Shown here in pieces: positions 59,369 through 59,454 of a stretch of DNA of 64,000 nt. Position 1 is the stretch's first letter; each line of letters starts with the position of its first letter. Source of the stretch: Octopus vulgaris (Eukaryota); contig OX597818.1 of NCBI GenBank assembly GCA_951406725.2, positions 41,230,001-41,294,000 on the forward strand, given 5' to 3'. The notes beneath the pieces are model-generated. The model had not been told where the DNA came from. It saw nothing but the letters and a program-made list of their open reading frames with translations, and searched no databases. The translations under genes were made by a program, and so were the position numbers.

Positions 59369-59454
59369 CTTTCGACATATGTTTCGAAGACAACATTGGT
59401 TTTATTCCAAATGAATAAACGATGTAAAATAATGTAATCTTCTCATCAGGAAAG
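59369..59454 (-). ncRNA. Intact type-I hammerhead ribozyme (GUC site)
   Basis: Minus strand reads ctttc CTGATGA gaaga...[long stem II]...tcttc GAAA c-atat-g TC gaaag. All core nucleotides are canonical and stem III is palindromic (acatatgt). Confidence 0.88.

Follow-up and report, generated by a model that had tools for sequence, protein, structure and literature searches.

A long-stem hammerhead motif in a Penelope-like element fragment of Octopus vulgaris, and similar motifs across the genome

Described relatives and the motif in the window

Hammerhead ribozymes in the pLTRs of Penelope-like elements (PLEs), their cleavage as dimers, the targeting of (TA)n and a Hydra family in octopus have all been published already. 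Within the Hydra clade, Hydra-1_Obim (Craig et al. 2021, PMC8557442) resembles the element family studied here, hereafter family A, in its single ORF with a reverse transcriptase (RT) followed by a C-terminal endonuclease, in a near-identical N-terminal layout, and in having DKT, no CCHH, and CxxC and CxH around a conserved E and N, as well as in its insertion at (TA)n and its 3'-region hammerhead with a self-complementary stem III. The two differ in the length of stem II, which is 53-59 nt in family A, compared with about 10-24 nt for the 26 Hydra entries given in File S2 of that study. Moreover, our alignment shows RWL in family A at the RWK position of the Hydra clade, the CxCX5C linker is found at none of 50 family A endonuclease starts, where an Asn-rich tract stands instead, and the family A unit is ~3.2 kb long. 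Family A and its sister family B also lie on a long separate branch together with an Argonauta protein.

The min-HHRs of Cervera and De la Pena (2014, PMC4209133) are likewise type I, with a short stem I, G10.1-C11.1 and a palindromic stem III, and the PLE hammerheads of that study, like ours, are mostly solo copies of truncated elements with a predicted dimer. However, their "larger than usual" helix II has 7-8 bp, whereas stem II is here a three-tier interrupted hairpin, and the additional base between A9 and 10.1 is absent here. The Poseidon element PAc of Anolis (Frangieh et al. 2024, PMC11167929) shares with family A two 3' ends downstream of the hammerhead, an AT-rich target and, apparently, uncut RNA as template, but its 3' ends are 30-40 nt rather than ~155 nt apart and lie inside the ORF, whereas those of family A precede the start codon (at +257), and its hammerhead overlaps the ATG, which that of family A does not. 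Non-LTR retrozymes (Cervera and De la Pena 2020, PMC7229834; bioRxiv 10.64898/2026.07.22.740005) also have type I motifs with a weak palindromic stem III, although the window copy, unlike them, is one isolated piece of a coding element. In length of stem II the nearest precedent is PLE-X1_sMoe of Selaginella (File S2, PMC8557442), where stem II plus loop take up ~53 nt; its motif, which is flagged as non-canonical, has an uncomplicated 9-bp stem closing a 35-nt loop and belongs to an EN- Chlamys-type plant element rather than to a large set of families.

The window, i.e. the whole 64,000-nucleotide stretch of DNA that was analysed, contains on its minus strand a type I hammerhead motif whose parts, coordinates and predicted cut were given in the initial annotation exactly to the base (Table 1). 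Hammerhead positions are numbered in the usual way (C3-A9, G10.1-C11.1, A15.1-U16.1). CUGANGA, GAAA, the A15.1-U16.1 pair and an NUH site are all present, and there are three helices with the open end in stem I, stem III existing only as a predicted dimer helix. The palindrome that had been annotated as stem III is indeed there and is 8 nt long. The stem II region is closed by GAAGA/UCUUC, with UUUAUUC/GAAUAAA further in; its unusual length was correctly noted, but is a trait of the lineage and not peculiar to the window copy. Compared with the majority of its subfamily, this copy is changed at 59412 (C>A) and 59422 (C>T); the first change disrupts the final pair at the apex of stem II, so that the description "textbook-intact" is not quite accurate.

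Table 1. The hammerhead motif, its parts and the copy that contains it, in window coordinates
Feature	Position	Strand	Basis or structure
Type I hammerhead motif, predicted cut 59374/59373	59369..59454	-	sequence reading, descriptor scan, shuffles
Stem I, 5 bp, CUUUC/GAAAG	59454-59450 / 59373-59369	-	sequence
Core CUGAUGA (C3-A9)	59443..59449	-	sequence
Long stem II, 57 nt	59386..59442	-	basal helix (G10.1-C11.1), middle helix, 11x3 internal loop, apical hairpin
GAAA core strand	59385-59382	-	sequence
C-auau-G, then UC	59381-59376, then 59375-59374	-	sequence
Self-complementary ACAUAUGU (A15.1 to U16.1)	59375..59382	-	predicted 8-bp intermolecular stem III
Predicted stem I extension past internal loop, UUCU 59462-59459 with AGAA 59364-59361	59361..59462	-	alignment of copies
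5'-truncated pLTR/3' fragment of Penelope-like element, family A, subfamily A1	59323..59492	-	copy alignments
41-bp 5' inversion of element sequence normally directly upstream of 59492	59490..59530	+	alignment
(TA)n tract adjoining 3' end, inferred insertion target	~59305-59322	.	sequence
Degenerate (TG)n/(CA)n microsatellite at 5' flank	59531..59870	.	sequence

A descriptor scan recovered the motif as the only window match with stems I and II of at least 5 bp. Two hundred dinucleotide shuffles of the window gave one such match in total, and none of the shuffle matches had a short palindromic stem III. The Rfam hammerhead models, which had been proposed as a further check, do not match the window at the gathering score, nor is a hammerhead found among the 80 Rfam matches at E <= 10 between 58500 and 60500, a failure that we attribute to the long insertion in stem II. 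When folded by itself, the 57-nt stem II region beats shuffles (z -2.3; z -3.3 in another copy, L002), whereas the whole 86-nt motif folds no better than its shuffles (z -0.67, with 50/200 as good), and the minimum free energy (MFE) structure of the monomer mispairs the core.

Family A and the long-stem motifs of the genome

In the 2.8 Gb genome, a 191-bp query gave 1,888 candidate copies, of which the 40 that were scored have 93-96% identity, and a pattern of core plus basal stem has 2,128 exact matches against 0 for its control, so that the genomic copies suggested as a check abound. Most family A copies are short and non-coding, their upstream extent varies and their 5' ends are scattered, but the longer ones run unbroken into sequence coding for the endonuclease, the Asn-rich linker and the RT, which bears out the proposed PLE origin of the motif. 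In a complete pLTR-ORF-pLTR copy (L091) the ATG lies 257 nt downstream of the 5' cut site, and an array on C20 consists of head-to-tail units of ~3.16 kb with one hammerhead each; both thus show the partial tandem with hammerhead-bearing pLTRs. No intact ORF was found in family A, the best having 785 aa; the core pattern is intact in 30/40 copies reached by ORF-side queries. The family also has 5' truncations, inverted 5' copies and an optional 3' tail, which is ~155 nt rather than 30-40 nt long. Of 125 alignment ends, 49 lie at +40 to +59 and 43 at +200 to +209 from the cut, i.e. there are two discrete 3' ends, at about +50 and +205 nt, both adjoining (TA)n. (TA)4 is found within 24 nt of 97/126 ends, the (TA)n insertion that characterises the Hydra clade.

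Several side observations concern the make-up of these copies. The C20 array (L197-L200, G000:C20 23.33-23.36 Mb) has units in both direct and inverted orientation, and in 8/8 of its motifs listed the core carries A6G and stem III is not palindromic. In subfamilies A1/A2 (L032-L062) the linker that joins RT and endonuclease is poly-Asn, encoded in frame by an (AAT)n microsatellite whose length varies, while the linker of subfamily A3 is a degenerate Asn/Ser-rich tract. A minimal hammerhead lacking stem III, with a 12-nt stem II, is frequent and often adjoins family A ends (L005, L006, L079, L356, L358).

Pfam finds neither an RT nor an endonuclease match in the element ORFs; the RT and the C-terminal endonuclease, which is of GIY-YIG type, were recognised by motifs and alignment. 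Sister family B and three more relatives do have the CxCX5C linker that family A lacks. In a 20-row tree, family A, family B and the Argonauta protein form a long-branched group (100/99), separate from two further families of the genome and from metagenome and database relatives, with the limits that the tree is without Poseidon, Neptune and Nematis outgroups or published Hydra proteins and that family B fills less than half of its columns. Judged from their protein sequences, families A and B would form an octopod branch related to the Hydra clade. We class family A as Hydra-derived, and not as canonical Hydra, because the CxCX5C linker is missing and because other PLE clades are absent from a tree in which the columns of B are less than half filled. 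The closest named protein (34% identity, one of four matches) is from Argonauta. Its source name, "GATA zinc finger domain-containing protein 14-like" (P0001), is likely a misannotation, as the sequence aligns with PLE RT throughout. Membership in Naiad was rejected, since the window family has a hammerhead and is without the N-terminal endonuclease, and the 3' ends of octopus Naiad are unlike it; the octopus Naiad "half cores" were likewise rejected as the same motif, on the basis of published consensus ends and motif searches. Having lost the linker zinc finger and kept its (TA)n ends, family A speaks, as a natural case, against the proposal that this finger steers insertion to (TA)n, and its two 3' ends, 155 nt apart and both ahead of the start codon, extend the internal-initiation model.

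Long stems are by no means confined to family A. Genome-wide we observed 13,394 exact core matches with a stem II of 42-68 nt (control 33), compared with 1,142 short-stem matches of 11-41 nt (control 56); this ratio holds for a pattern that requires G10.1-C11.1 and a 4-nt stem III loop, and family B, the 10-nt stems of family D and the minimal motifs without stem III fall outside the count. Representatives of the long-stem matches, chosen by eye among the first 100 listed, are mutually unrelated in sequence; the predicted fold of most is a long interrupted hairpin and most have exact palindromes, while for several, e.g. L226, L230 and L236, neither holds. Coding sequence of Hydra type is linked to long-stem motifs in families A, B and C and at L240 and L232, and near-identical young families occur among the carriers. 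Elsewhere, 42 of 79 metagenome loci encoding relatives have a detectable motif, in every case with a stem II of 10-39 nt. In this genome the long stem II is also found in a 535-bp non-coding, retrozyme-like tandem repeat (L228, G000:C1 near 16.53 Mb; L239, near 5.01 Mb), whose units are 99-100% alike, each with a hammerhead of 49-50-nt stem II, and which has an inverted 5' copy and (TA)n flanks, fitting the non-LTR retrozyme kind (PMC7229834; bioRxiv 10.64898/2026.07.22.740005).

Short-stem families with 10-nt and ~31-nt stems and intact ORFs of 717 and 727 aa coexist in the same genome. One very young family (L350, G000:C21 near 8.16 Mb; L351, C1 near 57.21 Mb) has identical 717-aa ORFs, forms 2.59-kb tandems at many loci and has a CCGAAGA core (U4C) with a ~31-nt stem II. 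Tandems of a 353-bp family, which has a short motif, are likewise common.

What is new here is the long-stem class across the genome and not the window locus, which is ordinary debris. The class is undescribed in the hammerhead, Penelope and cephalopod literature searched, although long-stem variants might be listed in Repbase, in Dfam or in the supplementary files of PMC4209133 and the preprint. The main text of a 2026 octopus repeat annotation (PMC13282606) does not mention ribozymes. Thousands of hammerheads escape Rfam and short-stem descriptors, and since both miss long-stem motifs, counts of cephalopod ribozymes are probably far too low. This one genome supplies matched natural constructs for studying dimer cleavage, protein help and stem II: near-identical young long-stem families, an intact short-stem tandem family and a tandem retrozyme.

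Pairing, cleavage and the role of stem II

In an alignment of 27 family A copies from about ten subfamilies, pairing is kept in 89.9% of cells, compared with 33-53% when the register is slid, although 8/27 rows are misregistered at the apical helix. A U-A pair of stem I becomes C-G in 8/27 copies, and the middle part of stem II shows A-U/G-U/G-C and U-G/U-A/C-G series. The invariance of core and basal stem is partly circular, since the search pattern by which 20/27 copies were picked already prescribes these bases. Five pairs are changed on both sides, which is not beyond shuffles (130/500), and none of the stem II pairs was so counted; of the proposed covariation check, conservation of pairing stands and an excess of compensatory change does not. 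In the predicted extension of stem I, 76% of cells are paired in the aligned family A copies, with both-side changes in 3/4 pairs.

The suggestion that the palindrome favours dimers agrees with the predicted folding. Two copies cofold at -46.4 kcal/mol, compared with 2 x -19.5 kcal/mol, a gain of 7.4 kcal/mol, and the swapped dimer has an 8-bp stem III of eight intermolecular pairs, whereas the stem III pairs of the monomer have a probability below 1% in the ensemble. Several subfamily copies have CAUGUG in stem III, which gives G-U pairs in the dimer, and in 18/20 family representatives the MFE structure of the dimer includes at least five intermolecular stem III pairs. This matches what has been published on PLE motifs, whose cleavage is weak and takes place in dimers (PMC4209133; review PMC6765202) or requires the element protein (PMC11167929). 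Watson-Crick pairing between stem II loops and stem I flanks shows no excess (4.2 vs 4.1 nt), which speaks against a Watson-Crick pseudoknot between them.

Traces of cleavage were sought in copies and in RNA. Three genome copies start exactly at the cut site and 31 at a control site 15 nt upstream, which may itself include subfamily variants or a fold-back hotspot. A few secondary alignment segments start within 10 nt of the cut, one of them at +1, with no peak, and no start falls within 10 nt of the cut at any of the 30 loci holding the 5'UTR-ORF junction. We therefore rejected 5' junctions at the cut as cleavage fossils; the scarcity of such starts is in line with uncut RNA as template, as described for PAc (PMC11167929). 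From ~6% of three RNA runs, 97, 68 and 47 reads, mostly less than 95% alike, aligned to L091, and at this low depth, in both orientations, they show neither a pile-up of ends nor a splice joint.

Taken as a whole, the observations are quite probably best explained by a pLTR hammerhead of a Penelope-like retrotransposon, of which a short and likely inert remnant lies in the window, with cutting by dimers in full elements. In full tandem elements two motifs would pair through their palindromes and cut multimeric RNA to unit lengths. The element protein would nick (TA)n DNA, and reverse transcription would start at either of the two sites inside an RNA in which the 3' hammerhead has stayed uncut or been re-ligated, as is suggested by the family 3' ends lying downstream of the cut; every 3' copy would bear the whole motif because the template has its 3' hammerhead uncut. 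For the window copy, synthesis may have begun at the +50 site and broken off ~210 nt later, with an inverted 5' end.

Alternative readings concern both the motif as a whole and its stem II. Least credible is that the window motif is the unit of a non-autonomous retrozyme or SINE, even though most family A copies are short and non-coding and the genome does hold true non-coding tandem repeats with long-stem hammerheads: the window copy is single and without a tandem, and the family is continuous into endonuclease and RT coding sequence, has scattered 5' ends and includes a complete pLTR-ORF-pLTR copy, which largely refutes this reading. It also seems improbable that a tertiary contact between stem II and the extended stem I enables a single motif to cleave, in which case the lone copy could cut a read-through transcript. 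Canonical hammerheads rely on contacts between these stems (PMC7229834), the core is fully intact and the extended stem I exists, with its both-side changes, but monomer stem III hardly forms in the ensemble, loop-to-flank pairing is not conserved and the palindrome is retained across families; moreover, lone PLE motifs failed to cleave in PMC4209133, and Pfam recognised no host gene in the 12 of 169 window frames scanned. We give equally little weight to the idea that the motif no longer cleaves in vivo, its fold being kept for RNA packaging or a promoter-linked role. The lack of a junction peak at the cut and of L091 read ends there (at low depth) would agree with it, as would the unaffected insertion of Poseidon catalytic mutants in vitro (PMC11167929) and the A6G cores of the C20 array, although amplification of that array may postdate insertion. 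However, families with RTs only ~49% identical to each other have all retained the catalytic bases and the palindromes.

As for the long stem II of this presumed pLTR hammerhead, we somewhat favour the view that the core needs only the basal helix and that the distal ~45 nt are a tolerated, lineage-specific insertion kept as a hairpin. An unpaired insertion would misfold the core, so that pairing would be selected and sequence would not; this view is based on the absence of a shared loop sequence and of a loop-to-flank excess, and on the coexistence of intact short-stem families. It does not account for the many families of unrelated sequence at 42-63 nt. A docking site for the RT or endonuclease, or a gate for dimer cleavage, 50-130 nt upstream of the first site at which reverse transcription starts, is a more tentative proposal: the 13,394 exact long-stem matches include many families of unrelated sequence with a similar interrupted-hairpin shape, a 535-bp repeat that must borrow its protein has the long stem as well, and the Poseidon hammerhead cleaves only with the element protein (PMC11167929). 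Yet the loop sequence is not common to families, the protein-binding region of Poseidon was mapped downstream of the ribozyme (PMC11167929), and short-stem families in the same genome have intact ORFs. The broader proposal, of an undescribed octopod class of dimer-type hammerheads whose 42-63-nt stem II is a docking or gating domain, carried by a fast-evolving Hydra-derived lineage and its retrozyme parasites, with one branch targeting (TA)n without the linker finger, is just as tentative.

The window copy and its surroundings

The window fragment stops at the first family 3' end site, ~+50 nt from the cut, and retains ~170 bp of the ~3.2-kb unit. It diverges from the majority of 36 A1 copies at 5/160 columns (3.1%), the median divergence being 4.4% in 11 copies reached from the ORF side and 0.5-0.6% in sister families B and C (20 best matches each). 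By the rule of PMC13282606, under which "recently active" means at most 2% divergence and 90% of the length, the copy does not qualify, and on the scale of that study, for an Octopus host, its age would be, very roughly, 10 million years. No second family A hammerhead was found in the rest of the window or in the next 40 kb upstream, and as two motifs are predicted to be needed for cutting RNA, a lone one is likely inert. The suggestion that the motif is recent is not supported, its possible activity is unlikely at this locus, and the copy is likely an ordinary, older and inert fragment.

Some other features of the window were noted. A second hammerhead (28431-28582, minus strand, core from 28570), with a 10-nt stem II and another stem III, lies in a short fragment with (TA)n on each side; this same motif stands after the family D ORF in 19/30 loci (L320-L349). 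A loose pattern also picks out hammerhead-like cores at 27855 (-), 12676 (+) and 31523 (-). At ~62400-62518 (-) there is a frame with an ATTLSKYIW-type stretch typical of PLE endonucleases, probably a PLE remnant, which tblastn at E 1e-4 did not report. Finally, a near-perfect inverted repeat of ~270 bp at ~58420-58690 is MITE-like and has a relative in L027.
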